From positions 1-61,416 of IMG/VR virus record IMGVR_UViG_3300047509_000054: a stretch of DNA of 61,416 nt; one strand, given 5' to 3'. The notes below the pieces were generated by a model that saw only the letters and a program-made list of their open reading frames with translations, made no database searches and was not told where the DNA came from. This stretch comes from a virus. Its lineage: Duplodnaviria > Caudoviricetes. Below are positions 2,234 through 55,917 of the stretch, one piece after another; position 1 is the stretch's first letter, and each line of letters begins with the position of its first letter. A program made the translations under genes and the position numbers.

Positions 2234-2617
2234 TCACGCGGCGCGCCCCCGATCCGGCCACGCGAGCCAGATCAGCGGGATCACCGTGAGGCAGCAGTAC
2301 GCGGCGAGGACCGCGAGGCCGATGTTCGACTGCCACGACATCGCGAGGAGAGCCAGCACGAACGCGCCGATCAGCGCGAGCAGCAGTTGCAGCCGAACGG
2401 CGAGAATCTTGGCGATTGCGGTGAAGACGGCGATGAGCGCGGAGGGCGTCGGCGGCGGCCTACTCGTCGTCTGAGGCTCCGCCGAAGGTTGGCTCGTCGG
2501 CTCGATGGAGGATGGCGGGGGTTCCGCCACGACCGTTCTCGGCCTTGGCTCGGCGGGTCTGACGGATAGTCTCTCCACGGAGCTGGTGGACAAATCCGTC
2601 AAGGGCATTTTCGTCAT
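2234..2617 (-). CDS. Small membrane protein (start uncertain)
   Basis: Hydrophobic C-terminal helices; overlaps the 3' end of 2460-2849 in another frame. Confidence 0.5.
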   Translation of the reverse strand: MTKMPLTDLSTSSVERLSVRPAEPRPRTVVAEPPPSSIEPTSQPSAEPQTTSRPPPTPSALIAVFTAIAKILAVRLQLLLALIGAFVLALLAMSWQSNIGLAVLAAYCCLTVIPLIWLAWPDRGRAA

Positions 2618-2849
2618 CCTCCGGGAAGAGGCGATGTTTGAGCGCGACGAAGTTGTTGATCGAACTCAGCAGTTTCAGTTGGTCGCTCATGGCGATCGGC
2701 GGCGCGTCGTCTACGGGAGTCCCGGAACCCTCAGACGTGCCGATGTCATTGGTTATAGACGGAAACGCTTTGTCCAACAAGGTTCCGTAGGCTCGCTCGA
2801 CCTTGTCCATGAGGGTCGGCGGCGGCGGGGTGCGCGAGCGTCCGGCCAT
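2460..2849 (-). CDS. Hypothetical protein, late operon
   Basis: ORF co-oriented with virion genes; GAGG-like motif upstream on the minus strand not clearly resolved. Confidence 0.55.
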   Translation of the reverse strand: MAGRSRTPPPPTLMDKVERAYGTLLDKAFPSITNDIGTSEGSGTPVDDAPPIAMSDQLKLLSSINNFVALKHRLFPEDDENALDGFVHQLRGETIRQTRRAKAENGRGGTPAILHRADEPTFGGASDDE

Positions 2850-2868
2850 CAGAGGACTATTTTATGGG

Positions 2869-2897
2869 TTGGCATTACTTCATGCGCTCGCTAAAGT
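2869..2897 (+). promoter_or_regulatory. sigma70-like promoter of element copy 1
   Basis: TTGGCA-N17-TAAAGT directly before the first hairpin. Confidence 0.6.
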
Positions 2898-2900
2898 GGC

Positions 2901-3298
2901 GAGGCCGGCGAGGGCGTCAACCCTCCTCCGGCCTCTGATCAAGTCCGGTAGCCGCCGGGACGAGATCAACTTCTCCCCAATCTAGGGTCGCAGGCGGCTT
3001 AGGTCAATCCGAGAGGGTTGGCACCGCAGGCATTCGGGATCTATCGACGGTCGGTCTGCGGCGTAAATGGTGGGAGACGGGCCTGGCAAACCACCATCGC
3101 CGGCCGAACGGTCCGGGCGAGCCAGACGGGGAAACCTACGAAGTGCGGGCCGGTGGTCTAAGCGTGGGCTCGTCTCAAGGGGCAAGTCTTAAAGTCGCTT
3201 GGAGGCCATAGGCGCCACTCGAACGCGCGCAACAAAATTGCGTGCCGACGGGTAGGCGGCCTGTGGCCATCACGCGGGTCTGAACTCAGGGGCAAGTC
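2901..3298 (+). ncRNA. Putative ~400-nt structured RNA, copy 1 (family unknown)
   Basis: Homologous to 10117-10510 (-) with compensatory changes and frame-breaking indels; multiple stems, GAGA and GAAA tetraloops. Confidence 0.75.
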
Positions 3299-3319
3299 GT
3301 TAGAAAGAGAAGATTAGAG

Positions 3320-3562
3320 ATGAGCAGACGACATCGAAGCATCAGAATCGTCGGTGGCCTGAACTGTCCTCATTGTGGAAAAACGATGCAACGCTTCGAG
3401 CACAGCAAATCGTGGGTTCCTCGTCCTGGTCGATATTATTTTCGCTGGTGGGACCGTTGCTTTCGGTGCCAGCATCTCCAGCACTATGAGAGCGCGAAAG
3501 TTTCTGTGCTGACGGAAGCCGATATGGACATACTTGACTTCGCACGCTCGCAAGGGTTGTAG
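3320..3562 (+). CDS. Small zinc-finger-like protein (cargo of copy 1)
   Basis: CPHC...CFRC; purine-rich RBS; antisense to the surrounding late operon. Confidence 0.7.
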   Translation: MSRRHRSIRIVGGLNCPHCGKTMQRFEHSKSWVPRPGRYYFRWWDRCFRCQHLQHYESAKVSVLTEADMDILDFARSQGL

Positions 3563-3563
3563 G

Positions 3564-4949
3564 TTACTCAGCCGCAATCTCCGCGCGCCCGACCGCCTCG
3601 TCCACGCTCGCCTCGAATGTGTGCCCGCCAGTGTGCTTCAGCTTGACGGACGGCAGCATGAATATCTCGCCGCCTAGCGCCTTCCATCGGTGGCAGAACG
3701 CGAAGTCCTCGGCCTTGCGTCGCTGATTGACGATCATCGGGGCGAACACGTCGTGCTCGGTCTGTCCCGTTTCCGACATGAACACGAGGTCTGGATATCC
3801 CGCCGCCATCCGCTCGGCGCAGGATCGAGAAATCATCGCGAAGGCCATGCCGATCTCGGAGACCAGCCAAAGCTCCGTTTCGCCTTCCACGATGACGACG
3901 TGCGAGCGTTCGAGGTTGAAGGCGAAGTTGATGGGGTACTGCTTCTTAGGGCCGGCTGCGGCGACGAAGTCTCGTTTGAGCATGGCGAGGCGGATCACGT
4001 CGATGGCTGACCAGCCCATGTCGGCGTCGATCGCCATCATGTGGGTGTGCGGCGATCTGAGGAACGCGCCGAGGAGTTTCGCCCGCGCGAGGCTGATATC
4101 GGCGCAGTAGGGCAACTCGCCGAAATCGACCCGCCCGCCGCACTGCCTGATCATGTTCGTGGTGTTCTCGAACGAGCGCATGAAGTGGCGGTCGTAGGTG
4201 CCGTCTCCGGTCGGCGTCGCGATGTAGATCGACATGCCGTCGAGGCGGGGCCGGATGACGTTGCCGCCGTGGCGCTCGGCGAGGTCCATGATGGCGTCGC
4301 AGGCGACCCGCTTCTCCTCGGCCATCCATCCCCGGAACCGCTTCTCGTCGCCGTCCCAGAAGCGCCCGATATGCGCGGTCGTGGCGTCCGACTTGCCCTG
4401 CCGGAAGGCGTGCATGTGGGCGACGGTCACGTCCATCCGAACCGTCCAGCAGTTCGTCGCGTTGCCGAGTTGCTCCCAGATGTCATCGACGAAGAAGTGC
4501 TTGAAGCCGGGCGGGTAGATGCCGCCGAGGGTTCTGAGGAGGTCGCCGGACCAGACGATTGCGCCGTGGATGCGCTTGGGGGCCTGCCAGTCGTCGTTTG
4601 AGGAGACGACGTTCCATCCGGCGACGCTCTCGATGAGTTTGGTGTCCCAATTCGGCGTCTTCGGCACATGGTCGTCGCAGAGGCCGCCGATCCAGTCGAG
4701 GTTCTGGCATGCCGCCTGCCATGCCCCGTTCATCGCCTCGACGACGCTGCCGGCCTCGATGGTGAGGAATGACCAGTTGTCCGGCATCTCGTCGGCAAGG
4801 GCGAGATAGTGCGCCTTTTCCTCTTCCCACTCGTCGAAGTTGACGACGACCCGCCCCGGCGTGCTCATGCCTGTCGCCTTCGCGGCGGCGAAGAAGCGCT
4901 TGAGCGAGGGGATGCGGCGCTTCGAGGGGAGGAGCCAAAGTCCGTTCAT
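3564..4949 (-). CDS. Two-domain GT-A-fold glycosyltransferase
   Basis: N-domain 'GGLCDDHVP...HFFVDDIW...HMH'; C-domain 'HMMAIDADMGW...AEDFAFC.RW...H.G' typical of phage GT2-like enzymes. Confidence 0.75.
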   Translation of the reverse strand: MNGLWLLPSKRRIPSLKRFFAAAKATGMSTPGRVVVNFDEWEEEKAHYLALADEMPDNWSFLTIEAGSVVEAMNGAWQAACQNLDWIGGLCDDHVPKTPNWDTKLIESVAGWNVVSSNDDWQAPKRIHGAIVWSGDLLRTLGGIYPPGFKHFFVDDIWEQLGNATNCWTVRMDVTVAHMHAFRQGKSDATTAHIGRFWDGDEKRFRGWMAEEKRVACDAIMDLAERHGGNVIRPRLDGMSIYIATPTGDGTYDRHFMRSFENTTNMIRQCGGRVDFGELPYCADISLARAKLLGAFLRSPHTHMMAIDADMGWSAIDVIRLAMLKRDFVAAAGPKKQYPINFAFNLERSHVVIVEGETELWLVSEIGMAFAMISRSCAERMAAGYPDLVFMSETGQTEHDVFAPMIVNQRRKAEDFAFCHRWKALGGEIFMLPSVKLKHTGGHTFEASVDEAVGRAEIAAE

Positions 4950-8035: not shown

Positions 8036-9642
8036 TACTGGACCTCGGGATCGCTAGACCACGGCGTTGCGCTTGGCGCAGAACGCGCACCGGCACCGCC
8101 AGCCGCGCTTGGCGACCCTTCGCCGGCATCGCGCTCGCCGCGCGGACGCCATTGCCCTTTCAACTGCAACAGCGTGTCTTGCTGCATTTTCTCGTACAGT
8201 TTTCGCACCTCTTCGAGAGAGCGCATGGTATTAGCCGTGGTGTCGCCCATGTTGAGCCCGCCGATGATCTCGGTGATCTTCTCCGCGTCGGCATGGAGCG
8301 GCCGGGACGACGCATCGGTCAGCAGGCGCGACGCCATCAACTGCAGATAGTCGATATTGCGCATGAACTGCACGCGCTCGGTCGTGTCGCTGCCGAGGAC
8401 GTTGCCGATGCGTTCGCCCAGTCTGGTGACCTTGCCGCCGACGCCGGCAGCGCCGACCAGATTATCGAGCACGGCCGTCGTCTCGCCGATCTTGTCGAGG
8501 CTGTCGTCGAACTGATCGACGCGCGTCTGCAACTTCTCCTGCGCATTGCCGGTGAGGAGACTCTTGCCGTATGCGTTGGCAATCGCCCGGTCCTTCTCGG
8601 TAGCCGTCGCCTTGCGCCCTGTCTTGGCCTCGATCTCGGCGATTTCCTGTTGAATGGCGTCGGCGCGTATCGCCGCGATCGAACCGCTTGACGCACCCGA
8701 TCGCGCCGTCGCTTTGACCGCGCCGGTCGGCGTGTAGGGCTGTCCGGCCAGATCCGTCGTCGCGCCGGTCTTGTCGTTCATCCGATACTGCTTCGCTGGC
8801 ACCGTCCGGCCATCGGCCCCAACGCGCTCCGGATCGGTGAAAATCTCCCACTTGCCGGTGTTTCCAGTGGTGCTCTCCGGCGTCCCCGACAGCACGCGAT
8901 TCATCTTGTTTATCCGCTCCTCCGGCGTCATCGGATTGGGCGTTTTCGCGCGGTCGGCCTGCTCCTTGTCGATCGCCAAGATACCAGCCTGTTTGGTGTG
9001 CAATTCTAGGAGTTTCAGACTGATCTCGGGCAACTTGCCGGCTTGAATCCGCATGTCGTTCTCGTACTTCGCGATGCCGTCAAGCCCCTGCGTCACGAGG
9101 ATTTGGTTCGCGGTGTGATTCTGGAAAACCGCCGTGAGATTCCTGACCTCGGCGTAGGTTCCGGCCCGATCGGTGTCGATCTTGGAGAGCGCCGCGCGAT
9201 AGGCGTCCAACTCGAAATGCGCGAGTTTCACCGCGTTTTCGGTGTTGATCTTCCACTCGTCGAACGCGGTCTGCGCGGCAGCGGCGTCCTTGCGCTTGTA
9301 GGCGTCGAGCACGCCAGCCGCCGCGTTGAGCGAGGCTGTGAGAGGCCGCCGCGTCAGCAAGCCTCCGAGCGACGCAAGCACGCCCGCCGACGAGCCGAAC
9401 GCCTCAAGCGGGCTGGTCTGAGGCGGCGCGGTCCACTTTTCGAGCTTGGGCGGCGTCAGGACGTTGGGATCGAGCTTCGCTTCCTCGGCGTCGATCTTCG
9501 CGGCCTTCTCCTTCGCGCGCTCGGTCGCGGCCTTCATCTCCACGTCCGACTCTTGGATGTACTTCTCGTTGGCGAGGAGGTTCGAGCGCAGCGCCGCGCC
9601 GATGCCGCCGCGTTTGGGATCGATCGCGTCGAGGAAACTCAT
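8035..9642 (-). CDS. Internal virion / ejection protein (putative)
   Basis: 535 aa, helical, Ala/Lys-rich, translationally coupled to 4949-8035. Confidence 0.55.
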   Translation of the reverse strand: MSFLDAIDPKRGGIGAALRSNLLANEKYIQESDVEMKAATERAKEKAAKIDAEEAKLDPNVLTPPKLEKWTAPPQTSPLEAFGSSAGVLASLGGLLTRRPLTASLNAAAGVLDAYKRKDAAAAQTAFDEWKINTENAVKLAHFELDAYRAALSKIDTDRAGTYAEVRNLTAVFQNHTANQILVTQGLDGIAKYENDMRIQAGKLPEISLKLLELHTKQAGILAIDKEQADRAKTPNPMTPEERINKMNRVLSGTPESTTGNTGKWEIFTDPERVGADGRTVPAKQYRMNDKTGATTDLAGQPYTPTGAVKATARSGASSGSIAAIRADAIQQEIAEIEAKTGRKATATEKDRAIANAYGKSLLTGNAQEKLQTRVDQFDDSLDKIGETTAVLDNLVGAAGVGGKVTRLGERIGNVLGSDTTERVQFMRNIDYLQLMASRLLTDASSRPLHADAEKITEIIGGLNMGDTTANTMRSLEEVRKLYEKMQQDTLLQLKGQWRPRGERDAGEGSPSAAGGAGARSAPSATPWSSDPEVQ

Positions 9643-10073
9643 TTGTCAAACTCCGACCTACGATAGCTTACACTAGTTATTGGGCCGGGTTCCAAAACCG
9701 CGATTTTAGGTTCGTACAGCGTCTTCAGCGCTAAATCATAATCGCGCTCGCTCTTCCGAAGAAGACTGTCCCGAGTTGTGGATTCTCCGCCACCCGATCG
9801 TCTCATCGACGCGGTTCTATAAAGTGTCATTGCATAGATAAACGATATTCCACCAGTAATAAATGGCGAGAAACCCAGATGTAAAGGCGACATTATCGTT
9901 GCTATAAACAACAGACAACTGGAATATATGCAGAATAGCCAGAAAATACCCACTGATTCATCACAGTCTTTTTCCCACTCATGCAAAATTGAAAACGTAA
10001 AAGTGGAAAGAAGACCAAACTCGGATATCAGTGTCATAACATATGCTGTCACATCACCTATATTGTCTCTCAT
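9639..10073 (-). CDS. Low-GC membrane protein (cargo of copy 2)
   Basis: About 3 hydrophobic segments; visibly AT-richer than flanks; AAGGA RBS; ATGA overlap with the next gene. Confidence 0.65.
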   Translation of the reverse strand: MRDNIGDVTAYVMTLISEFGLLSTFTFSILHEWEKDCDESVGIFWLFCIYSSCLLFIATIMSPLHLGFSPFITGGISFIYAMTLYRTASMRRSGGGESTTRDSLLRKSERDYDLALKTLYEPKIAVLEPGPITSVSYRRSEFDK

Positions 10074-10116
10074 CTAACTAGTCCTTGTGTTGTCGTGTTA
10101 ACATCTAAACCTACCA

Positions 10117-10510
10117 GACTGTCCCTGAGTTCAGACCCTCGTGATGGCCATAGGTCGCCTACCCGTCGGCGCGCAATTCGGCGCGCGTTCGAGTGGCGCC
10201 TATGGCCTCCAAGCGACTTTAAGACTGTCCCTTGAGACGAGCCCACGCTTAGACCACCGGCTCGCATTTCGTAGGTTTCCCCGTCTGACGCGCCCGAGCC
10301 GTTCGGCCGGCGATGGTGGTTTGCCAGGCCCATCTCCCACCATTGCGCCGCAGACCGACCGTCGATAAATCCCGAATGCCTGCGACGGTGCCAATCCCGG
10401 AGGATTGACCGATGCAGCCTGTGTACCTAAATTCGGGGGAAACGCTCCTGTCCCGGCTGCATTCCGGACTTGAGCGGGGCGACGGGAGTTGATAGCTCCT
10501 GTCGCCCGCC
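10117..10510 (-). ncRNA. Putative ~400-nt structured RNA, copy 2 (family unknown)
   Basis: Inverted homolog of 2901-3298; same stems; C(UCCG)G loop replaces the GAGA loop. Confidence 0.75.
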
Positions 10511-10513
10511 TTC

Positions 10514-10543
10514 ATTCTAGAGCCATTTTCGTCGTCGATGCAA
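10514..10543 (-). promoter_or_regulatory. sigma70-like promoter of element copy 2
   Basis: TTGCAT-N18-TAGAAT on the minus strand directly before the first hairpin. Confidence 0.65.
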
Positions 10544-10554
10544 GCGCGCCGCAT

Positions 10555-11871
10555 TCAAGCCGCCGATACCTTGATCGTCTGTCCCCCGCCGCCCGCGAGG
10601 CCCGCCGCGAACTTCGCCAGCGCGTCCGAGAGCGAAGCGTCCTGCGCGAGCGAGTCCTTCAGGATAGACTCGTAGAGCGCTGTCGAGAGGCCGGTTTCCT
10701 GTATGCCCGTCGAGAGGAGGGTGCTCGCGAGGCTAGCGCCCTGCGACTGCTCGTTGATGCCCTGCGCGAGAAGGCTCTGCGCCAGCGTGCCGCGCTGCGC
10801 CGCGATCTGGTTGTCGACGTTGGCGAGATCCTGCTGCTCCGCCGACGATCCCGACATGCCGCGCGAGGCGTACTGGCTGCGGATGGTCGCCTTGGCGGAT
10901 GCGGCGGCTGTCGTGAGTTGCTGTTCGAGGCCGGGCGGCAGTTTCCCGGCTGCGGCGTCGTTGGCGATGGTGGTGCCCTGCGTCGTGAGGTTCCCAGCCG
11001 TGCTGCCGACCGTTGCCGCGTTCGGGCCGATGAGCGAGTTTCCTTGGCTGGCGAGTTTGTCCGCTGCGGAACTGAGATTGCCGGCGGCGGCGGAAGCGCC
11101 GGGGATGGTCGGCTGGTTGAGCGCCTCGAAGCCGAGAATGCCGGCGCCGAGAACAGCGCCCGGATTGTTGACGAGGCCGCCGCCGATCGTGCCGGCCGGG
11201 TCGTTGAGGAATTTGGTGAAACTCGAATCGGGCGACGGTTTGATGCCGGATGCTCCGAAGGCATTTTCTCCGGCAGCGATAGCGGATGGTCGCGCTCCTC
11301 CTGCGGTGTCGGCGTTGAAAGCATCGGTCGCCGTTTTGTCGAGTCCCGCTGGTGCCGTCGCATCAGGGCCGGAGAAGGGCACCGAGGCGGGCGCGGCGAC
11401 CGGGCCGGCAGCGGAAGCGATGCCGACAGGGGCTGCACCGGGAGGAGCCACGGCAGGCGCTACGGGGGCGATGGCTTGCCCCACCGGCGAGGCAAAGGCG
11501 GAAGCGGGGTCAATGGCAGGGGGCGCTATTGCACCGGCGGCGCCACCAGCCTGCGGAGCGACGCCCAACGCAGTCGCGATATCCTGCCCGCCGATCGAAG
11601 CCTCGGTGAGCGCGGCGGGGATAGCAGTGCTGGCCGCATCCGTCGCAACTGGTGCGACATCCGCCGCACCGCTGGCACCCGCTGCGGCAGCATCGGCAGC
11701 CGTCGATGACAGTTGGCCCGCCGTACCGGCGGCATCCGCCGCAGCGGGCGCCGTTCCACCGAAGAAGTCGCTGACTGCGGTTCCAGCCTGATCGAGCACC
11801 GCGCCGAGGTCGCAGACGATCGAGTGCGGGATGTCGCAGAGCCAGATCTCAGCGTTGAAGACGTGCGTCAT
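10555..11871 (-). CDS. Ala/Gly-rich internal virion / pilot-like protein
   Basis: Low-complexity N-half; 'ASRGMSGSSAEQ' type motif; ATG overlaps the upstream stop. Confidence 0.6.
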   Translation of the reverse strand: MTHVFNAEIWLCDIPHSIVCDLGAVLDQAGTAVSDFFGGTAPAAADAAGTAGQLSSTAADAAAAGASGAADVAPVATDAASTAIPAALTEASIGGQDIATALGVAPQAGGAAGAIAPPAIDPASAFASPVGQAIAPVAPAVAPPGAAPVGIASAAGPVAAPASVPFSGPDATAPAGLDKTATDAFNADTAGGARPSAIAAGENAFGASGIKPSPDSSFTKFLNDPAGTIGGGLVNNPGAVLGAGILGFEALNQPTIPGASAAAGNLSSAADKLASQGNSLIGPNAATVGSTAGNLTTQGTTIANDAAAGKLPPGLEQQLTTAAASAKATIRSQYASRGMSGSSAEQQDLANVDNQIAAQRGTLAQSLLAQGINEQSQGASLASTLLSTGIQETGLSTALYESILKDSLAQDASLSDALAKFAAGLAGGGGQTIKVSAA

Positions 11872-23625: not shown

Positions 23626-24639
23626 CTATCGTTGTAGAAGTCGGCCTCCTTCCTTTCTAACGCGATCTCGCCAATACGCCATCAGGTCCGCCATCGTCTG
23701 CGCGAACGGGATCTCGGGTTGCCACCCTGTGTGTGCGCGAAACTTTCTTGTGTCGGGGACCTGGAGGTCGGCGTCGATCGGGCGCAGGCGCTCGGGATCG
23801 ACCTCGATGGTGATCCTCACATCAGCCGTGGACATCCGAATCAGGTGGTGAGCGATGTCGCCCACGGTGCAGGTGTGCGTGCCGCCGATGTTATAGTAGG
23901 ATCCGGGAATCGGATTGACCGTCACGGCGATGTGGTAGGCTTTGGCGACATCGCGAACGTCGCAGAGGGTTCGGAGAGAGTCTAGGTTTCCGACCTTCAC
24001 GACAGGCGGAAGAAGTCCGGCTTCTATCATGCAAATTTGCTTGCTGAACGAACTTTCCATGAACACATCGCCCCGCCTTGGCCCGGTCGTCGTGAACATC
24101 CGCGTCGTCTGCGTGTTGATGCCGTAAGCCTCGGCGTAGAAGCGCCCGACGAGATCGGTGCCGGCCTTGCTGATCGCGTAGGGGCTCGCGGGATGGAACA
24201 GCGTCTCCTCGCCGATCGGCACCTTGTCCTTCGGCACGCGACCGAAGACCTCCGACGAGGAACAAACGTGGACGATCGCCTGTGGACAGAATTGCCGCAC
24301 GGCGTCGAGCAGCCGAGTCGTTCCCAAGATGTTCGTGTCGAGGGTGTCGAGCGGCGAGTCGAACGAGGTGCGCGGGAAACTCTGCGCGGCGAGGTGGAAG
24401 ACGTAATCCGGCGCCGCCTCCCTGACCACGCGCTGAATGCTGATTGTGTCCCTCAAATCGCCGCAGAGCAGATGCACCCGGTCCTTCGCGTTGATGCGCG
24501 GGATCAGCGTTTCGAGGTTGTCGAGCGGCGAGCGCCACCGCGTCATTCCGTACACGTCCCAATCGGTGTGCTCGACCAGGTACTCGGCGAGGTGGCTGCC
24601 GACGAATCCGGTGAGGCCCGTAATCAGCGCGCGGGTCAA
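23626..24639 (-). CDS. GDP-mannose 4,6-dehydratase / RMD-like extended SDR
   Basis: 'ALITGLTGFVGSHL', 'HLAAQS', 'SSSEVFG', 'SPYAISK', 'GNLDSLR'; TTG start overlaps the upstream stop. Confidence 0.85.
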   Translation of the reverse strand: MTRALITGLTGFVGSHLAEYLVEHTDWDVYGMTRWRSPLDNLETLIPRINAKDRVHLLCGDLRDTISIQRVVREAAPDYVFHLAAQSFPRTSFDSPLDTLDTNILGTTRLLDAVRQFCPQAIVHVCSSSEVFGRVPKDKVPIGEETLFHPASPYAISKAGTDLVGRFYAEAYGINTQTTRMFTTTGPRRGDVFMESSFSKQICMIEAGLLPPVVKVGNLDSLRTLCDVRDVAKAYHIAVTVNPIPGSYYNIGGTHTCTVGDIAHHLIRMSTADVRITIEVDPERLRPIDADLQVPDTRKFRAHTGWQPEIPFAQTMADLMAYWRDRVRKEGGRLLQR

Positions 24640-25757
24640 AGGACTAGCCGCATGACGGCGACGGCGCGTTCGATGAGGTCCGGAGCGGGCCAAGGCGGGT
24701 TGCCCAAGAACATGCCGGTGTCGTGAATGCGGTCAGCGTTGGGTGTGGACTGGTTCTGCCAGCGGGCCGAGTAGGGGTGGCGCAGGAAGCTACCGCCAGC
24801 GGGAAGGCGACAATCTATGCTCGCTGCCCGCAACGCCGTCACCAGCCGCAACCTCGTCGCGTTGTCGGTCACGCTGAACTGAAACCCAAACGGCGACATG
24901 AAACCGTTCTCTCTAACTGGCGTGATATCCAGATCCTTGGTGAGTCCGATGAAGTGCTGATAATTGTGACGACGCTCTGCGATGAAGCCGGGGAGTTTGC
25001 GAAGCTGCACGCGGGCGACTGCCGAGTTGACCTCGCTCGGACGGCAGTTGAACCCAAAAATCTCGAAGCGGTATTCGTCGTCGAACGTCTCCGCCTTCTG
25101 CACGTCGCGCGTCCAGCCGTGCGAGCGCAGCATCCTCAAGAGCCGATAGCACTCGGCGTCGTTTGTGCCAACGAGTCCCAGTTCTATCGCGCTGAGTTGA
25201 TGGCTGTAGAATCCGCTGAACGTGCTCATCAGTCCGAAGGTGCCGCAGAGCTTGCCGTCAACCGATGCGCCGAGGCTTTCACACGCATCCTCGATCAGGT
25301 ACGCCTTCGTGACGGCCGCCGCCTTTTCCCATCCAGCGTAATAGGCCGGATTGCCGAGAACAGGGCAGGTGACGATGAGGCGCGGGACCGGCGTCGAGGT
25401 GACGATCAGCGGCACCGCGTTCCAAGTCGCGTCGGTATCAGCCACGCGAAGGTCCAACCCACTCTGCACCAAAGGCGCAAACGTGGTCGCCCAAGCAATC
25501 GCCGGCACCACAGCGCGATCACCGACCCGCAGCGGATTGTCCTTGAGATGAAAGAGCGCGGCGGTGGCGATCTGATTGGCGGCCGACCCGGAGTTTGTCG
25601 CGACGGCGTACTTGCGCCCGATATACGCGGCGAACTCCGATTCCAGAGCCGCCGTCTCCTCGCCCATCGTGACCCATTCGGAGTCGAGGACGCGGTTGAT
25701 CGCCTCCCGCTCTAGCTTGTCCCAATGTGAATGCCCGGTAGGAAACTCATATGCCAT
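24636..25757 (-). CDS. ColD-like PLP-dependent 4-keto-6-deoxysugar 3-dehydratase (DegT/DnrJ family)
   Basis: 'NSGSAAN', 'EDACESLGA', 'FYSHQLSAIELG' with His at the Schiff-base Lys position, 'LRSHGWTRD'. Confidence 0.85.
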   Translation of the reverse strand: MAYEFPTGHSHWDKLEREAINRVLDSEWVTMGEETAALESEFAAYIGRKYAVATNSGSAANQIATAALFHLKDNPLRVGDRAVVPAIAWATTFAPLVQSGLDLRVADTDATWNAVPLIVTSTPVPRLIVTCPVLGNPAYYAGWEKAAAVTKAYLIEDACESLGASVDGKLCGTFGLMSTFSGFYSHQLSAIELGLVGTNDAECYRLLRMLRSHGWTRDVQKAETFDDEYRFEIFGFNCRPSEVNSAVARVQLRKLPGFIAERRHNYQHFIGLTKDLDITPVRENGFMSPFGFQFSVTDNATRLRLVTALRAASIDCRLPAGGSFLRHPYSARWQNQSTPNADRIHDTGMFLGNPPWPAPDLIERAVAVMRLVL

Positions 25758-25774
25758 TTCGCTAATCCTCTCTG

Positions 25775-25927
25775 AGTTGCCGGCTCGCACCCCTTAGCGT
25801 TAGCCGCGCCGACTGTCAGAAGATCGGCGGGAGATTCACGGTTTGCCCCTTGCATAATGCGGGGGAGGGCTGCTTGGTTCGCTGGGACGGCCGGCGCGTC
25901 CCCCAGGACGAATCTCCTATGGCAACT
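25775..25927 (-). other. Multi-stem intergenic element in the sugar operon
   Basis: AGTTGCC/GGCAACT closing stem, GGAGATTC/GAATCTCC and two further hairpins. Confidence 0.45.
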
Positions 25928-25928
25928 G

Positions 25929-26456
25929 CTACGCATAGAATTGCGTATATTCGACGAGTAAGGTTGAGCCCTCGTAGTCTAGGGCCTTGCGATATGCGGG
26001 GACAATCAACTCGTGGACGGCGAGGCGCTCGACGCGGATCGTCTTGAACATCATCTCAAACGCCCCGCTTGGATCGCCGAGGTGCTGACATCCAGCGTCC
26101 AGCGGGATCGGCGTGGCGACCGCTGTGCGAATGATGACGCGGGGCTTGTAGCCGCCATTTGAGAAGATCGGAATCTTGTCCAGTTGCTGCACCATCTGCG
26201 GCACGGCTTCGAGGAGAAACTGGATGCGTGGATAGACGCTGACCGGCAGTCCGCCAGCGATGGCAATGCCCGTCGCCATCCCGCATTGGAGATTCTCGGC
26301 GACGGGCATTTCGAGCAACTTCTCGGGGGGCAGGTGGCGGAACGTTTGGCTCATCGCCGTTCCGTCCGCCACAACGGCCTGCCCGATCACGATGGCTAGC
26401 GGATGCTCGCACACGAGACTCATCGCGTCGCAGATGGCTTTCGCGTAGGCGTTCAT
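25929..26456 (-). CDS. TPP-dependent enzyme, E1-beta/transketolase pyrimidine-binding domain (short)
   Basis: 'EMPVAENLQCGMATGIAIAG', 'PRVIIR', 'GCQH'. Confidence 0.85.
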   Translation of the reverse strand: MNAYAKAICDAMSLVCEHPLAIVIGQAVVADGTAMSQTFRHLPPEKLLEMPVAENLQCGMATGIAIAGGLPVSVYPRIQFLLEAVPQMVQQLDKIPIFSNGGYKPRVIIRTAVATPIPLDAGCQHLGDPSGAFEMMFKTIRVERLAVHELIVPAYRKALDYEGSTLLVEYTQFYA

Positions 26457-26629
26457 TCGTCGGTCGACATGTTGTTGGCAAATTGCCATCCATACTCGGA
26501 AATCGCCTCTTCGATCATGTCCCTAATGATCGCCATCTTGGTCTCGTTCGGCATGCCGTGCGTTGCCCATACTCGCGGATCGGCACACAACTCTTCGATC
26601 ACCTTGTCGGCGTATTGTCCTGCGGTCAT
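26453..26629 (-). CDS. Hypothetical protein (58 aa)
   Basis: Start and stop overlap both neighbours. Confidence 0.5.
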   Translation of the reverse strand: MTAGQYADKVIEELCADPRVWATHGMPNETKMAIIRDMIEEAISEYGWQFANNMSTDE

Positions 26630-27222
26630 TAGAACTGAATCCTCTTGCCACTTCCGGCGTGCGGCCAGGGACTTGAATAGACGAAGGTCGTAACGAAGTC
26701 GTCCTCGGGGTTAGCAATGCGCGGCCCCCACGTCTCCTCGGTATCCGAGCACACGCTTTTCCCGTTGTCCTCGCATACGAAGTGGATCGGAAGATCGTGG
26801 CCGGCGGCGTAGGACAGGCACTCGTGAAACATGCCGCCGCGCGCTGTCATATCGCCGCAGAACACCCAGACGCGGTTAGTCCCGCCCGATCTTTTGATCT
26901 CGAACGCGATGCCGAGCGCGATCGGAAGGATGCCGCCGACGATCGCCGAGGAGATCATGCGGTAAACGGGGAAACAGAGCGTCATGGATCGACCGGCCAT
27001 GATCTCGGCGCGCACTAGATCGGGCGGAATCCCGTGGAGCAGCGCGTGATAGTGACTACGCCAGTTCGAGCAAATCCAGTCGGCCCGGTCGATCGTCTCG
27101 AACACCTTGATGAGTTGGGCTTCGCAGCCGCCGTGCAGATGGATCGGCGCGCGTATCTCGCCGCGATTGAATCTCTCGGCGATATCGGCCTCGAACGCGA
27201 TGAGTTCCTCGTCGGTCATCAT
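26629..27222 (-). CDS. TPP-dependent enzyme, E1-alpha-like (short)
   Basis: 'HLHGGCEA', 'RSHYHALLHG', 'IVGGILPIALG', TPP motif 'GDM...EDN'. Confidence 0.85.
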   Translation of the reverse strand: MMTDEELIAFEADIAERFNRGEIRAPIHLHGGCEAQLIKVFETIDRADWICSNWRSHYHALLHGIPPDLVRAEIMAGRSMTLCFPVYRMISSAIVGGILPIALGIAFEIKRSGGTNRVWVFCGDMTARGGMFHECLSYAAGHDLPIHFVCEDNGKSVCSDTEETWGPRIANPEDDFVTTFVYSSPWPHAGSGKRIQF

Positions 27223-27440
27223 TTGCCGACCACCCTCACAGGCACGCCCATGATCATCAGCCCATCGACGGATCGAGGAATCGGTCGCGCGAGTTTTTTC
27301 TGGAGCAACTTCATCTCCTCGACCAGCGCGTCGTATTCGGCCTGAGTCACTGCGAGATAGGCCGGGGCGCGTCCTCCCGTCGCGTCCTGGTCGAGGACGA
27401 TCTTGCGTGCGATGGCGTGGGCGAGGGGCGTCGCGGTCAT
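27219..27440 (-). CDS. Hypothetical protein
   Basis: ATGA-coupled short ORF. Confidence 0.5.
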   Translation of the reverse strand: MTATPLAHAIARKIVLDQDATGGRAPAYLAVTQAEYDALVEEMKLLQKKLARPIPRSVDGLMIMGVPVRVVGK

Positions 27441-27466
27441 TCTTGGAACATCGGAGTTATCATCGT

Positions 27467-28507
27467 CTACTCCGCAGCCTGCTTCTTGCGGAACGTCACG
27501 CGGTCGAAAACCTGCGTCCAGAACTCCGCCGGGTCGTGATCTTGGCGAACCGCCGTATAGAGCGCGTGCCCGATCTCTTCGCAGCGCTTTATCTGGCCCA
27601 TGAGAAATTTGCACATTTCCAGGCAGTGATCCGGGTTGTCGTACTCCTCGAACTCGGAGCGCGGCTCGAACCACTCGCGAAGATGCGGGTTCGTCCATTC
27701 GAGCAGGCACGCCCGCGCGAGCGCCGTCTCGATCACCCGGCCCTTGACGTGCTTGCGCTGCCCCGACCCGGTGAACGGCACGTTGACGATGATCCGGCAG
27801 TGCTGGAGGAACGAGGCGTAGCTCGCGTACTCCTCGAAGTCTCGAAGCTTGAGGACGAATGGCAACTCCTCCTGCTGGAGCCGCTCGACGACGCCCTTGC
27901 GCATCCAGCCGCCGACGTTGCCGGCATAGCCGATGGGGAACGGGCGCTCGGAGAAGGCGAAGGTTGGCTCGGGGTAGAATATCGGGCTGATTGGGGTGAG
28001 CAGCGTGATGCCGTTCTCGATCTTCCAGGATGGAAGTGGCGCGATGGCCCCGGTCCACTCCGAACCGCCCGGCCAGTCGTGGTTGCCGTCGATGCTGACG
28101 GTGAGGTCGAACAGCCCTTCCTCCTCGAACTTCCGCAGGATCGGCCACCACGGAGGATCGCCGCCGTCGAAGAGCAGATGCACCAGCGGCGCCATCTCCC
28201 TCAACTTCAGCAGCGTCTCGTTCGTCGGCGCGAACGCCGATCCCCACGCGCTGATGTAGAGAATGATGTCCGGTCGCATGTCCTCGGCGTGGTGCAGCAG
28301 TTCCGGATCGCACGTCACGTACTGCGCCGTCTGGTTGAGCCGCACCGCCGCCTTTTGCGTCGGGTCGAGCTTCTGGTAGATGCCGTAAGACTGCGTCGAT
28401 TTCTGATCGTAGCAAAATGAATTGACCTCGTGCTGGCCGATGTAGCGCAGGCCCGCCGCGATGCTCTCGGTGTCGCCGGTCGATGTCGTCGCGATCAGTA
28501 CGCGCAT
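27467..28507 (-). CDS. GT-B glycosyltransferase (CgeB / GT1_2-like C-terminus)
   Basis: 'IGYAG...R', 'CRIIVN', 'KGRVIE....ACLL', 'FEP..EF..Y', 'IGHALY..V..DH'. Confidence 0.75.
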   Translation of the reverse strand: MRVLIATTSTGDTESIAAGLRYIGQHEVNSFCYDQKSTQSYGIYQKLDPTQKAAVRLNQTAQYVTCDPELLHHAEDMRPDIILYISAWGSAFAPTNETLLKLREMAPLVHLLFDGGDPPWWPILRKFEEEGLFDLTVSIDGNHDWPGGSEWTGAIAPLPSWKIENGITLLTPISPIFYPEPTFAFSERPFPIGYAGNVGGWMRKGVVERLQQEELPFVLKLRDFEEYASYASFLQHCRIIVNVPFTGSGQRKHVKGRVIETALARACLLEWTNPHLREWFEPRSEFEEYDNPDHCLEMCKFLMGQIKRCEEIGHALYTAVRQDHDPAEFWTQVFDRVTFRKKQAAE

Positions 28508-28518
28508 GCGCTAATCCT

Positions 28519-28701
28519 TCAAGTGTAGTTTCCAGGGTCGGCGCCTGCCGGCCAGGTAAGCGCGTGCTCCTTCGCGAGGGCGCGCAACTCGTTCATGGGT
28601 ATGCTCACCCGGATCTCGATCAACTCGTCATCGCCCTTCTCGGCGGCCTGGATGATGATGCTGTAGTAGGCGCTCAATACCCTGCTTTCGATGGAGGTCA
28701 T
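28519..28701 (-). CDS. Hypothetical protein
   Basis: ATGA-coupled short ORF. Confidence 0.5.
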   Translation of the reverse strand: MTSIESRVLSAYYSIIIQAAEKGDDELIEIRVSIPMNELRALAKEHALTWPAGADPGNYT

Positions 28702-30173
28702 GCCGTCTCCAGCAGCTTGCGGCGGATCGTCTTCGCCGTCATCGCCTTGATGTGCTCGACCGTCGCGGCGCCGAACTTCTCGCGGATCATCGAGAGGTAG
28801 CGCGGGTTTCGGTAGTAGGTCTGGAACGCGGCGTCCCGGAATCGCAGCACCTCCTCCGCGCGGACGTGCAGCGTGTCGAGCGGGTGCGTCTCGTAGGCGT
28901 GTTGAGAAAATCCTAAATAGCTATCGGGCAGCCGCGCGCCGGCCTTCACCGCTTCCGCGTAAAGAGCCGATCCTGGATACGCCTGCGCAGAATAGAAGTT
29001 CGCGAAACTCGTATTGAGGCCCATTGCCAGATCGAGCGTCTCCTGCATGCTGACGAGGTCATCGTCTGGCAGGCCGAAAATGTAGTTCGCAATGACGTTG
29101 ATACCGGCACTTTCGATAGATCGAACCACCGCCACAATATCGTCGCTCTTGAGCGCCTTATCCGCTCCGTCTCTGACATGCTTGCTCCCCGATTCGATGC
29201 CGAGCGCGAGCCAGCGGATGCCGGCGCGGCGGAACATGCCGAGCGTGTCGGGCTTCACTGTATCGATTCTCGCGTAGGCCCACGCATTGCCACCGCGCTC
29301 GCCCCATCCGGATTCGATCAGACTTTGGCAGATCGCGGTGTAATGGCTCGGCTTGAGCACAAACATCTCGTCGACGATCTTGATCGTCTGGACGCCGTAC
29401 TTCCGTTCCAGCATGAGAATTTCGGCGACGACGTTCTCAGGATTTCTGGTACGATACTTGTTGTCTCCGAAGGGCGCAGAGATACAGCAAAATTTGCATC
29501 GCCAGCTACAATTTAGGCTCGTGTAGATCGAAGCGTAGGGCTTCCGCTTCGACAGATCGCCGAAGCACTGCCATGGGTGCGCGGCGTAGGCGTGCATCGG
29601 CAGCAAGTCCCACACGTCGCCGTGCAGATCCTTCATGTTGGGGAAGGCGGCTCGCGGCTCTTGGAGGATGCGACCAGAGACGAGAGAATCGCGCCACACC
29701 AATCCAGGAACCGGACCTCTGCCACGCAACAACCCTACGATGGTCTCGAATCCCTCGCCGTTGCAAGCGTAGTCGATCGGCTCGTCGCGCAGCGTCTTCT
29801 CGGGCAGCGCCGCGACGTAGCCGCCGACCATGATGACTGGGATATCGAAGCCATGAACCTCGTCGTCAAGCATGGCGGCGATCTCGTGCGCGCCGTGCAT
29901 GGTTTGGGCGCTCGAACTCGGTTGATGGCCGTGTGCCACAATGCAGATCAGGCGCGGCCTGTGGAACAACAGACCTATATTCATACAGACATCGGCGGCG
30001 CTCATACCCTCGGCTTCTGCGTCCATGATGGCGACGGAGAAACCCAGATCCCTCACATACCCAGCGATGAGGCGGACCCAAAGATTCGGTTCACACGCCA
30101 CCAACTCGTCGCCGAGTCCGCTATAGATCGCGTCAGACGCGCCGGGGTTTATGAGGAGGAGGTCGAGCGTCAT
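28698..30173 (-). CDS. Cobalamin-binding radical SAM enzyme (class B methyltransferase-like)
   Basis: N-terminal B12-binding pattern, CSWRCKFC, 'DEMF', 'LGIESGS', 'YIFGLP', 'YPGSALY'. Confidence 0.9.
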   Translation of the reverse strand: MTLDLLLINPGASDAIYSGLGDELVACEPNLWVRLIAGYVRDLGFSVAIMDAEAEGMSAADVCMNIGLLFHRPRLICIVAHGHQPSSSAQTMHGAHEIAAMLDDEVHGFDIPVIMVGGYVAALPEKTLRDEPIDYACNGEGFETIVGLLRGRGPVPGLVWRDSLVSGRILQEPRAAFPNMKDLHGDVWDLLPMHAYAAHPWQCFGDLSKRKPYASIYTSLNCSWRCKFCCISAPFGDNKYRTRNPENVVAEILMLERKYGVQTIKIVDEMFVLKPSHYTAICQSLIESGWGERGGNAWAYARIDTVKPDTLGMFRRAGIRWLALGIESGSKHVRDGADKALKSDDIVAVVRSIESAGINVIANYIFGLPDDDLVSMQETLDLAMGLNTSFANFYSAQAYPGSALYAEAVKAGARLPDSYLGFSQHAYETHPLDTLHVRAEEVLRFRDAAFQTYYRNPRYLSMIREKFGAATVEHIKAMTAKTIRRKLLETA

Positions 30174-31859: not shown

Positions 31860-32213
31860 TCACGCTCTCCGTGCCAAGTCGTCGCGCCGCGCCTGCTCCG
31901 TATCGGCCCGCAGCACCTCATCGTCGGACGGCGCAACCCGCCAGCCTTTCGGCTCCCACGCGATCGTCGCGAAGTCCCATGCTGACACCCATTTTCCAGA
32001 CATAACCCACCTGCCTTTTTCGATCTTGCGCGTCTTCTGCCAGCGGGCGCGGACCTCGCGCGTGCCCTCGTTCAGCAAGATATGAGTCCCGTCGAGCGGC
32101 GCCGTATCCATTGCGGCGTACTCGACCGCAGGTTGCGGCGTCTCGACGGCGGGAGGAGGCGGCTCGGGCGTCGGCGGCGCCTCCTTGAATACCTGCTTCG
32201 GCTTCTCGGTCAT
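31860..32213 (-). CDS. Hypothetical protein (DUF551-like 'TAP.DGT' motif)
   Basis: GGAGG RBS; 'MDTAPLDGTHILL...EPKGW'. Confidence 0.6.
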   Translation of the reverse strand: MTEKPKQVFKEAPPTPEPPPPAVETPQPAVEYAAMDTAPLDGTHILLNEGTREVRARWQKTRKIEKGRWVMSGKWVSAWDFATIAWEPKGWRVAPSDDEVLRADTEQARRDDLARRA

Positions 32214-32689
32214 CTCTTCCTCCGTATCCCAAGCATACGCTGCTTGTCGCGACGGCGTTGTGCGGTGGCTCGAACACAGATCCGGCACCACCTCCCGAGG
32301 CCACCACAATCTGTTTTTCCGATCAGGGTGTTATCAGGGGAGTACGGGTGACCATTTTTGCAGTGCGTTTTTATTCTGTTGTGTTTTCCGCCATTTCCTC
32401 TCCTCACGTTCTCGGCGTGCGTCACCGGCTCAAGATGGTCTGGGTTGCAGCATGGAGGATTTCGGCAAAGATGATCTAACTCAAAGCCTTCGGGAATCGG
32501 ACCCTTGATCCGCTCGTACATCAATCGAGAAACCCTTACATGTTTTCGGTCGAATGACGCATACGCGTATCCATACGTAGTGGCCCCGGTCCAATTCCAG
32601 CAGCCGGTTGCTTGGTCAACCACGAGCTTGCTGGTGATGCGCTGGATCTTCCCTGGAATTGTCACGCCAAGCCTCGCTGTATCATCCAA
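32210..32689 (-). CDS. HNH endonuclease
   Basis: 'CWNWTG...LDHLCRNPPCCNPDHLEPVT..EN'; C-terminal KTHC..GH...C..C. Confidence 0.9.
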   Translation of the reverse strand: MDDTARLGVTIPGKIQRITSKLVVDQATGCWNWTGATTYGYAYASFDRKHVRVSRLMYERIKGPIPEGFELDHLCRNPPCCNPDHLEPVTHAENVRRGNGGKHNRIKTHCKNGHPYSPDNTLIGKTDCGGLGRWCRICVRATAQRRRDKQRMLGIRRKR

Positions 32690-41343: not shown

Positions 41344-41600
41344 GTATCCCGAAGCGTGACCCTAATTTCACGACGGCCGAACTCAACAGGGTGGCCGACG
41401 ATTTTTTAGCTGCTGGCAAGCGCTATTGGGAGGCGGCGCACCGGGCCGGCATCAATGGCGCGGTGATCTGGATCGAAGACACCGATGGTCGTTTCGTGCT
41501 GTTCACGCGCGGCGAGTACAGAGAGACGATCATGCGGAATGTCCACGAGATCGGGCCGACTCGGCAACTAGGCGCGGTGCAGGATAGCAGCGAAGAGTGA
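41340..41600 (+). CDS. Hypothetical protein
   Basis: GGAGG RBS; ATGA coupling. Confidence 0.6.
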   Translation: MSIPKRDPNFTTAELNRVADDFLAAGKRYWEAAHRAGINGAVIWIEDTDGRFVLFTRGEYRETIMRNVHEIGPTRQLGAVQDSSEE

Positions 41601-41629
41601 TCCTACTACGAGCGCTACGGGGAAATCGA

Positions 41630-41950
41630 ATGACCGACAAATACATCCTCAAGGGGCACGAGGCTGTGCCGTGCGATGATCTCATGGCATGGGCGCGCTG
41701 GTACGAGACGGCCGAGCGACAGGTCGGCCGCACGGAGGTCGGACACTTCACGGTATCGACGGTCTTCCTCGGAATCGATCACGGTTGGAGCGAAGGCGGG
41801 CCGCCGATCCTCTTCGAGACGATGATGTTCACGCGGAACGATCAGCGGCGCGCCGAGTTTGAGGACTATCAAACGCGCTGCTCGACTTGGGACGAGGCGG
41901 TGGCGATGCACGCGGAGGCGGTCAGGGTCGCGCGGGCGGCGATCAACTGA
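41630..41950 (+). CDS. Phage hypothetical protein
   Basis: 'VSTVFLGIDH...P.LFETM.F' motif common in phages. Confidence 0.7.
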   Translation: MTDKYILKGHEAVPCDDLMAWARWYETAERQVGRTEVGHFTVSTVFLGIDHGWSEGGPPILFETMMFTRNDQRRAEFEDYQTRCSTWDEAVAMHAEAVRVARAAIN

Positions 41951-45000: not shown

Positions 45001-45741
45001 TCATGCCGCCGCTCCGAAGTCAAAATGATCCTGCACCGGCATGGTTGCGATGCGGTGCGCGAAGCGAACGGCATGGCGCGGATCGTTCGGACTCTCCTTC
45101 CGCCTGCGAGCTGCGGCCGACCACGCCATGCTATCGGCGCTGTAAAGCATGTCGCGGATCATCCCGCACGCAAGCGCCGTCGTCTTGACCCCGAAGGCGT
45201 GCAGGCGAAGGTCCGGTCGTGCTGCCTTGATCGCGCTCAAGACGGCGCGAATTGCGGCGGGATCGCCGTTGCGCTTGCAGATGCTGCCGACGCCGGTCCA
45301 CATGCCCGACTTGAGCCGGTCACCGTACTGCCGGATATGATCGACGTAATCAGCTGGCGCATAGCCTTGCAGAACGGGGAGGATGTAGACGCCGCTAGTA
45401 TTGCAGGCGAGCAGCGCATCGTATCGCTCAATGGTGAGGCGCTGGTGATTGGCGATCGTGAGGCCAGTCTTCTCCAGCATCATCGTCTCGCACATATAGT
45501 CCTGTGCCACGGCGGCGAGGAGATTGCCGCAGCGCCGCCAACGCCTGATCTCGCACGCATAGGCGCCAACCGTCGTCGTGTATCGGCCGTGCGCCGCAAT
45601 CTCGGTGAAGGCGCCACTGTCCATAATCCAGTCACCAACCGGGAAGTTCCGGCGGCGACCTAGTAGCCGCTTCACCGAGACGAACGCCGCGCCAACCTTG
45701 TCAGCGTCAGAAGGATGATGCATGCCAGTGAAGAATTTCAC
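45001..45741 (-). CDS. TGT-fold / DpdA-like guanine-exchange enzyme
   Basis: 'MDSGAF', 'QDYMCE', 'PVLQG', 'GVGSICKR', 'LHAFGVK', 'SADSMAWS'. Confidence 0.75.
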   Translation of the reverse strand: MKFFTGMHHPSDADKVGAAFVSVKRLLGRRRNFPVGDWIMDSGAFTEIAAHGRYTTTVGAYACEIRRWRRCGNLLAAVAQDYMCETMMLEKTGLTIANHQRLTIERYDALLACNTSGVYILPVLQGYAPADYVDHIRQYGDRLKSGMWTGVGSICKRNGDPAAIRAVLSAIKAARPDLRLHAFGVKTTALACGMIRDMLYSADSMAWSAAARRRKESPNDPRHAVRFAHRIATMPVQDHFDFGAAA

Positions 45742-55603: not shown

Positions 55604-55689
55604 GATCGCTTCTCCTAAAAGCGGTGGTGGCCAGAGCCGGGAGAGCGCTTCCAACGCCCTCTCGGCTCGTTGTATTTTACACATATTTT

Positions 55690-55917
55690 TCATTTCGTTC
55701 GAGAAATCGCTCGCCTTAACGCCGCATCCTTGACGCCCTTCACGAGCAGATCGGCAGATTGCTCAGGCTTCTGCATCGAGGTCTTTCCGGCTCTCTCGTC
55801 GGCAGCCTTGCCCTGCTTCATCTTGAACGCCTCGACGTGGCGTTCCTCGCAGTCGGTGCGGGAAATCCAGGTGAGGCCCACGGGGGCGATGCGACAGTGC
55901 GGGCAGAGAACGGTCAT
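55690..55917 (-). CDS. Hypothetical protein
   Basis: Coupled ORF with CPHC. Confidence 0.5.
   Translation of the reverse strand: MTVLCPHCRIAPVGLTWISRTDCEERHVEAFKMKQGKAADERAGKTSMQKPEQSADLLVKGVKDAALRRAISRTK

Follow-up and report, generated by a model that had tools for sequence, protein, structure and literature searches.

Matching short tags at the 3' end of a structured RNA gene in two accessory cassettes of a soil phage

Why should two short sites near the 3' end of a structured RNA gene agree with each other within each copy of the gene, and differ together between its copies? The question is raised by a locus of a novel 61-kb soil phage. The window, that is the whole stretch of DNA analysed, is a complete virus record of 61,416 bp; it has direct terminal repeats and a GC content of 62%. 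Recognisable genes are few: tail-fibre-like and virion proteins, a sugar-modification cluster, DpdA, the recombination proteins ERF and YqaJ, three HNH_3 endonucleases and a GH108 lysin. An NCBIfam scan of 58 phage ORFs named none. The metabolic cluster (23626-30173, minus strand) is unusual in a phage, with genes like those for GDP-mannose 4,6-dehydratase, a DegT-type aminotransferase, E1-dehydrogenase/transketolase pieces and a B12-binding radical SAM protein, and is possibly a sugar- or surface-modification module. The DpdA homologue (45001-45741, minus strand; E 1e-39) belongs to the 7-deazapurine-in-DNA family, and the homing-endonuclease-like HNH_3 genes lie at 32210-32689 (minus), 50978-51472 (plus) and 55064-55693 (minus).

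The structured RNA element is present in exactly two copies, mutually inverted, and both cassettes that contain it lie in the tail-gene region. Positions 2930-3300 (plus) of the first copy match 10473-10120 (minus) of the second with 87% identity, and an nhmmer search of the whole phage genome with a two-copy profile returned no third copy. All inference on the tags and cassettes draws on these two copies in one genome. The copies, their tags and the downstream ORFs, called cargo here, are arranged as follows.

About 2901-3298, plus strand: RNA copy 1, ~400 nt.
3174..3188, plus strand: tag site 1 of copy 1, CTCAAGGGGCAAGTC.
3285..3298, plus strand: tag site 2 of copy 1, CTCAGGGGCAAGTC; similarity between copies 1 and 2 stops here.
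3320..3562, plus strand: cargo ORF 1, an 80-aa zinc-ribbon protein, GC 46-55%.
3566..3577, plus strand: degenerate tag-like 12-mer, ACTCAGCCGCAA, a 10/12 match at the far edge of cassette 1.
About 10510-10117, minus strand: RNA copy 2, ~400 nt.
10223..10236, minus strand: tag site 1 of copy 2, CTCAAGGGACAGTC.
10117..10129, minus strand: tag site 2 of copy 2, CTCAGGGACAGTC.
9639..10073, minus strand: cargo ORF 2, a 144-aa predicted membrane protein, GC 36-41% over 9800-10099.
9764..9777, minus strand: third tag of copy 2, AACTCGGGACAGTC, inside cargo ORF 2.

The tag repeats measure 13-15 nt and are spaced 106-111 nt apart. A first-pass annotation of this DNA had placed four tag strings at sites 1 and 2, and all four are found there. 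It had further claimed that both sites changed together. The copies do differ by one transition and one lost A, the same pair of changes at each site; once site 1 has changed in this way, site 2 would acquire the matching pair by chance with p ~1.2e-3. Within the 61,416-bp genome, GGGGCAAGTC occurs only at 3179-3188 and 3289-3298 (two found against 0.11 expected; two reached in 1/100 shuffles). GGGACAGTC stands at both homologous places in copy 2, and GGGACAGTCT occurs genome-wide at 10231-10222, 10125-10116 and 9772-9763 (three found against 0.09 expected; three reached in 0/100 shuffles). Outside the tags, the copies differ over 3002-3298 by 20 substitutions in 264 aligned bases and three indel events. 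The tag changes stand out as islands in the best-conserved part of the element, where ~30-45 bases either side of site 1 are invariant. This concerted change of two sites within otherwise invariant sequence bears out the term copy-specific tag that the annotation had introduced. Copy-to-copy similarity ends directly past tag site 2, again as described there, and unrelated ORFs of lower GC start at that point. The cargo start codon follows tag 2 by 21 nt in copy 1 and by 43 nt in copy 2.

The left part of the tag reads CTCAAGGG at site 1 and CTCAGGG at site 2 in both copies, and CTCGGG at the third site. Sites 1 and 2 differ from each other in the same way (AA versus A) in the two copies, and are therefore not plain duplicates of one sequence. 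Retention of this difference suggests a site-specific constraint at the RNA level.

The third tag extends the pattern into the cargo. The string AACTCGGGACAGTCT, which the first-pass annotation did not list, occupies 9777-9763 in cassette 2; it falls within the cargo ORF, 353 nt past tag 2 and in the same orientation. It has the AACTC flank of tag 2 and the T that follows tag 1, and its local-alignment score is 13, against a maximum of 9 for unrelated genome windows. The GC-poorest DNA of the region lies between tags 2 and 3; the boundary at tag 3 is not sharp, because the rise in GC begins 30-40 nt before it. At the far edge of cassette 1, the degenerate 12-mer is located where similarity to a related phage resumes (3579), but its score of 8 is matched by 99/816 genome windows and is within chance.

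Other tag-like strings in the phage are an 11-mer at 41648 and same-sense 9-10-mers only. The 11-mer, CTCAAGGGGCA at 41648-41658 (plus), lies inside ORF 41597-41950 and is identical to the start of tag 1 of copy 1; by a rough estimate, ~0.03 such matches are expected by chance. A candidate degenerate remnant of the tag-hairpin-tag arrangement at 2486-2575 includes the 10-mer GCGGGTCTGA, also present at 3274-3283. It was rejected as not above chance, being equalled or beaten by 49/300 and 5/300 shuffles and by 28/277 genome windows.

Such matching could be a functionless relic: an old local duplication around the hairpin, with matching changes produced by short-tract gene conversion or by chance. 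Short chance repeats are indeed abundant in this GC-rich DNA, where several unrelated families of 10-17 nt occur, and the comparison comprises two copies only. The relic reading is nevertheless improbable, as chance would give the same two changes at a rate of ~1e-3, conversion tracts would need to work with only ~14-25 nt of homology, and the third tag is left unexplained.

The element that carries the tags is a structured RNA gene and not a protein gene: the copies are offset from each other by indels of 1 and 3 nt and have no ORF in common. A 101-codon frame (10554-10249, minus strand) runs through RNA copy 2 from right past the upstream stop codon; it is open in copy 2 only, being closed in copy 1, and a gene caller would be likely to annotate it wrongly. 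The parts of the predicted transcription unit are listed below.

2869..2897, plus strand: sigma-70-like promoter of cassette 1 (TTGGCA, 17-nt spacer, TAAAGT), 9/12 consensus matches.
2901..2935, plus strand: 5' hairpin H0 of RNA copy 1, -26.1 kcal/mol, z -3.8.
2939..3173, plus strand: body of RNA copy 1, with conserved TCAAGTCCGG (2939-2948), helix H1 (2950-2956 with 2993-2999) and hairpins H2-H7; highly conserved from 3002.
3196..3276, plus strand: long imperfect hairpin H8 of copy 1, core 3204-3268.
10514..10543, minus strand: promoter-like hexamers of cassette 2 (TTGCAT, 18-nt spacer, TAGAAT).
10474..10510, minus strand: 5' hairpin H0 of RNA copy 2, -21.4 kcal/mol, z -3.9.
10237..10473, minus strand: body of RNA copy 2, 87% identical with copy 1.
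10138..10213, minus strand: hairpin H8 of copy 2, predicted fold.

The sigma-70-like site is a candidate, by its consensus match, for the promoter that drives cassette 1. The look-alike of cassette 2 is weaker and lies in the same place; it was read by eye, having been missed by the promoter scan (its -35 hexamer matches at only 3/6 positions). The -10 hexamer TAAAGT of copy 1 aligns with TAGAAT of copy 2. Antisense promoter-like hexamers (TTGACC, 17-nt spacer, TAGATT or TAAATT) are also found at the same place in both RNA copies, at 3007-2979 (minus) and 10405-10433 (plus); the cassette 1 set faces ORF 2849-2460.

In the 5' quarter (2898-3001) the copies differ by 41 substitutions in 101 bases, with helices kept: hairpin H0 has the same architecture built from different sequences, and helix H1 pairs AGCCGCC with GGCGGCT in copy 1 and TGCAGCC with GGCTGCA in copy 2, two pairs having changed on both sides. 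Substitutions number 14 in 171 aligned bases over 3002-3173 and 6 in 93 bases in the H8 segment between tags 1 and 2, which is about as diverged as the RNA core. The break in divergence between the copies is sharp (41/101 in 2898-3001 versus 20/264 in 3002-3298) and suggests, at ~3002, either mosaic cassette ancestry or very unequal constraint. The whole units fold at -172.2 and -171.9 kcal/mol (copies 1 and 2; z -3.6 and -4.0; 0/100 shuffles as good), and the 3' modules at -60.8 and -61.8 kcal/mol (z -4.4 and -5.3; 0/200 shuffles as good). As the first-pass annotation had it, the two tag sites bracket the long 3' stem-loop, whose core lies at 3204-3268 in copy 1 and 10213-10138 in copy 2. Every difference between the two H8 hairpins falls in a loop, in a bulge or in a switch between G-U and Watson-Crick pairing.

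The consensus fold reaches -138 kcal/mol on the sense strand versus -102.75 on the antisense strand, 35 better on sense. Single-sided changes that keep a pair through G-U number 13 in sense and 6 in antisense, with no broken pair; since RNAalifold picks pairs to fit, this sense-strand bias and the compensation are supportive, not proof. The sense bias on both measures is one of several features that would be expected if the tags were motifs of the RNA itself, so that each transcript offered two identical sites (three in cassette 2) to a copy-specific partner in trans, either a protein or a host or phage RNA. The sites might be cut by an endonuclease, freeing the hairpin and splitting the structured RNA from the cargo mRNA, or serve as decoy or sponge sites. 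The tags do lie within a transcribed-looking unit with a promoter-like site, the hairpin has changed at structure-neutral positions only, and both copies preserve the AA/A difference between sites 1 and 2. There is, however, no co-varying complement in cis, and elsewhere in the phage only the same-sense 11-mer (41648) and 9-10-mers resemble the tags. It is not parsimonious to postulate a separate copy-specific partner for each cassette, and neither the end of cargo similarity at tag 2 nor a third tag in a coding region is explained. A role as RNA motif is the main rival to the reading preferred below, and is possible but rather unlikely.

Besides processing or circularisation sites, the first-pass annotation had offered alternative partners in a conformational switch, in which tags 1 and 2 would alternate on one complementary segment and so control translation or termination of the cargo. 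Tag 2 does lie shortly upstream of the cargo start codon, and in copy 1 it can pair with 2931-2938 at -14.8 kcal/mol. This pairing has no counterpart in copy 2; of the partners shared by the two copies, the best is the invariant GCGTGGGCTCGTCTCA, to which either tag type binds equally well (~-10 kcal/mol). A convincing or copy-specific complementary partner was found in neither cassette. In full-length partition functions the probability of tag-tag pairing is low and the best partners lie elsewhere; no U-tract follows the hairpin, and a scan found no terminator-like site there. A switch is accordingly very improbable, and this part of the annotation is not supported. Two further roles were rejected. 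As self-complementary dimerisation sites the tags would not discriminate, the cross-copy duplex being as good as the copy-1 self-duplex when read by eye. A rolling template is contradicted by units of 110-111 and 106-107 nt that contain stop codons, and no reverse transcriptase was found.

The RNA matches no family described in Rfam 15, and the cassettes are unusual in having as their platform a large structured RNA with a copy-specific tag. At gathering score, Rfam 15 returned no matches in the whole genome, including group I and II introns, ribozymes, riboswitches, HEARO, GOLLD and ROOL. At E<=10 only five and two sub-threshold matches to unrelated families appeared, at 13-17 bits versus gathering scores of 39-94. 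ARAGORN found no tRNA or tmRNA genes, and RNase P RNA type A (RF00010) was not found in the genome by a search that was positive in 11/14 known genomes as a control. A narrow literature search on phage structured RNAs and morons brought up no title that describes such an element.

Homologues of the RNA were sought widely. By blastn none was found in 50,697 phage records or in 72,556 plasmids, and exact and RY-degenerate patterns for five RNA blocks gave no homologue in viral, metagenome and genome contigs. Seventeen viral-contig loci picked up by pattern were set aside as chance: with blastn they matched over no more than 17-25 nt, and four proved to be C4/isrK loci, which are unrelated. A protein search with the open non-coding frame through the RNA, designed to catch spuriously called ORFs, found none, and the flanking 563-aa and 535-aa proteins have no relatives in the viral or metagenome contigs searched. 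Further family members should nevertheless exist, because the 5' quarter is deeply diverged between the copies.

This DNA is present in two soil-metagenome runs: X1, probably its source, and X2, from another study, which contains a related phage. The flanks of the relative are about 95% identical to those of the present phage. A contig of 1,499 nt (record 15) from X2 shows 30 differences over 9065-9642, and 16 differences plus two gaps over 10565-10900; it joins 9642 to 10565 with 13 other letters in between. At this joint three bases separate the stop codon of the 563-aa gene from the start codon (ATG) of the 535-aa gene; promoter, RNA copy 2 and cargo ORF 2 are therefore all missing from the relative.

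9643..10564, minus strand: whole cassette 2 (promoter, RNA, cargo), absent from the relative.

Cassette 2 is, on this alignment, a precise intergenic insertion. A second joint passes over 2523-3578, the stretch with RNA copy 1 and cargo ORF 1, so that cassette 1 is apparently missing as well; this joint is seen in a single contig, whose shorter side measures 45 letters. On this comparison, made with contigs that tell presence only, the cassettes are accessory. Similarity to the relative breaks at 2522, inside two overlapping minus-strand ORFs, 2234-2617 (third-position GC 0.84, membrane-like) and 2460-2849 (0.72), which cannot both be fully real. A self-splicing intron was considered and rejected: in the relative's contig the cassette falls between a stop codon and the next start, and its removal restores no ORF.

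The cargo ORFs show no mutual similarity, and neither has a Pfam family match. Cargo 1 belongs to a large, widespread and uncharacterised family, of which a representative library contains 334 members at E<=1e-3 and, at the stricter E<=1e-10, 93; its Cys pairs are invariant and its consensus is CPKC...MQR.EH...W.P...WDRC..C.H.QHYE. The AF2 model (pLDDT 91.9) resembles generic zinc ribbons only, and the best Foldseek hits, at E 0.57, are ribosomal zinc-ribbon proteins. Searches of PHROG, Pfam, NCBIfam and PDB sequences gave no match for cargo 1, and word-index and tblastn searches none. An Atlas lead to DUF1062 was dropped, as only 151 features are common. For cargo 2 no homologue was found (best Atlas score 0.86); its stop codon overlaps the start of the next gene. 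A search of viral contigs with cargo 1 returned ten loci, six of them clear relatives (E 3e-22 to 8e-16) and four 14-residue matches (E 7e-4). All six place the gene in tight operons that lack this RNA; for five of them the search for the RNA was extended to the whole record and found none, the best match being 14 nt (E 0.25). RNA and cargo are therefore separable modules.

What the analysis shows is that the tags recur and differ in concert, that the RNA is structured, that the cargo has its boundary at a tag and that a relative is without the cassettes. An origin of the tag identity at the DNA level is our inference. The reading we prefer, tentatively, treats the tags as junction cores in the DNA at the 3' end of the RNA gene, at which modules (hairpin, cargo) are inserted or exchanged. 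The proposed mechanism is as follows. (i) The cassette would consist of a promoter, the novel ~400-nt structured RNA, the long hairpin and a variable small ORF. (ii) A core of ~10-16 bp, CTC(A)(A)GGG[G/A]CA(A)GTC, would lie at the 3' end of the RNA gene and recur at every module boundary: ahead of the hairpin, past the hairpin at the cargo start and, in cassette 2, again 353 bp on. (iii) DNA modules would be inserted or exchanged at this core. (iv) The local core may be duplicated in the process, as in staggered-cut integration, or identical cores may be needed in both partners, as in site-specific recombination. (v) By either route, cores would come to match within one cassette and to differ between cassette lineages.

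The relation that evolution appears to have kept is the identity of direct repeats, not complementarity, and the repeats lie exactly at module borders, which is the signature of DNA joined at a short core. Counted in favour of junction cores are the concerted change (p ~1.2e-3), the end of similarity at tag 2, the third tag and the lack of an anti-tag in cis, together with the accessory nature of the cassettes, the separability of RNA and cargo and the precedent of casposons. Among the roles proposed by the first-pass annotation, the junction of cargo thus gains support from the ORF boundary at site 2, the third tag and the cassettes absent from the relative. Counted against junction cores are the lack of a recognised recombination enzyme in the phage, the conserved AA/A site difference, the blurred GC edge at tag 3, the chance-level 12-mer at 3566-3577 and the number of copies, two only. 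H8 is shared by both cassettes and about as diverged as the RNA core, so it is not a recent insertion. A simple duplication, made once and left to itself, would have drifted by now, and the reading therefore has to assume repeated re-insertion or selection. Junction cores are a tentative reading because no enzyme was found, H8 is as old as the RNA core and the AA/A difference hints at constraint on the RNA.

The enzymes looked for were integrase, transposase, Cas1, IS110-type recombinase and reverse transcriptase, and none was recognised with Pfam (65 ORFs), NCBIfam (58 ORFs) or PHROGs. An enzyme supplied in trans figures in a bolder proposal, that the ~400-nt RNA is a new cargo-capture platform whose ~10-nt programmable tag specifies the 3' insertion site by DNA identity. 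Such a platform would be an RNA-specified analogue of integron and bridge-RNA systems in the form of a non-autonomous phage cassette; the proposal as a whole is doubtful. In its bridge-RNA-like version, tag 1 would serve as a programmable guide exposed on a ~300-nt scaffold; it would base-pair with tags 2 and 3 on the opposite DNA strand, and the recombinase would insert cargo there. The scaffold is conserved while the tag is variable, with tag changes as islands in the most conserved part, and in both copies the tag in the RNA has the very sequence of the DNA junction or junctions. It was covariation between non-coding RNA loops and element boundaries that revealed the IS110 bridge RNAs (PMC11208160). 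This version is nevertheless most doubtful: neither cassette nor phage has an IS110-type or other recombinase, the downstream ORFs (80 and 144 aa) are mutually unrelated, the RNA has no Rfam match, and two copies make covariation statistics impossible.

If the tags mark an insertion or exchange site behind a conserved RNA, the cassettes would be a compact route by which phages gain and express orphan genes, and the RNA a new large structured class with a built-in specificity element. RNA specificity elements have repeatedly turned out to be programmable. On a plainer reading too, the locus is a natural pair of empty and occupied sites that can help to study the entry of accessory modules into the very small gaps between structural genes of phages.

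Several known systems invite comparison. RNAs of type III toxin-antitoxin systems consist of tandem ~35-nt repeats upstream of an endoribonuclease gene. Membership of that class was rejected, the repeats here being 13-15 nt long and 106-111 nt apart and the cargo ORFs being without Pfam match, as was an RNA template of retron, DGR or DRT type, no reverse transcriptase domain having been found. Integrons have a fixed promoter platform (promoter and attI) followed by exchangeable promoter-less ORFs that are joined at a short core site, and in attC inverse-complementary core sites pair in a hairpin. The cassettes share with them a promoter-bearing platform followed by a swappable ORF at a short core. 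They differ in having no IntI and in flanking sites that are direct repeats, not complementary; with no integrase found and sites of this kind, the locus was not assigned to the integrons.

The PeSL of T4-type phages (PMC2839356, PMC4122927) are described in PMC2839356 as small cassettes with a strong promoter and a terminator stem-loop. These modules flank orphan genes in variable phage regions and mediate modular shuffling. The present cassettes are likewise repeated regulatory modules beside orphan genes in a phage, but consist of two copies of a ~400-nt multi-helix RNA, with a hairpin without U-tract and short copy-specific tags. Membership was rejected on the presence of only two copies, with no T-run past the hairpin and no terminator-like site at either copy. 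With the bridge RNA of IS110 (PMC11208160), the element shares a conserved structured non-coding RNA with short variable segments that match DNA at its own boundary. It differs in that no recombinase gene is adjacent and the RNA is ~400 nt; a two-loop architecture is not part of what is claimed for the predicted fold. Membership was rejected, as no DEDD or serine recombinase is found among 65 ORFs (Pfam) or 58 ORFs (NCBIfam).

Elements are known to accrete in tandem at the att sites of tRNA genes. Casposons (PMC5137440) make a 15-bp target duplication beside the 3' end of tRNA-Pro and require sequence of the upstream gene as a 'leader'. The phage locus differs in having no Cas1/casposase or integrase, although a host-encoded enzyme is possible. 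Its RNA is not a tRNA or tmRNA, its segments measure 96 and ~340 bp, and the platform is itself an accessory phage insertion. Casposon-type integration leaves a direct duplication of about 14-15 bp around an element with terminal inverted repeats; here a 96-nt inverted-repeat segment lies between repeats of 13-15 nt, but one A distinguishes these repeats and the segment dates back as far as the RNA core does. The likeness lies in direct repeats of 13-15 bp, the first at the end of a structured-RNA gene and the further ones at the borders of inserted segments, in upstream RNA-gene sequence that is conserved like a 'leader', and in a first segment, H8, that is an inverted repeat.
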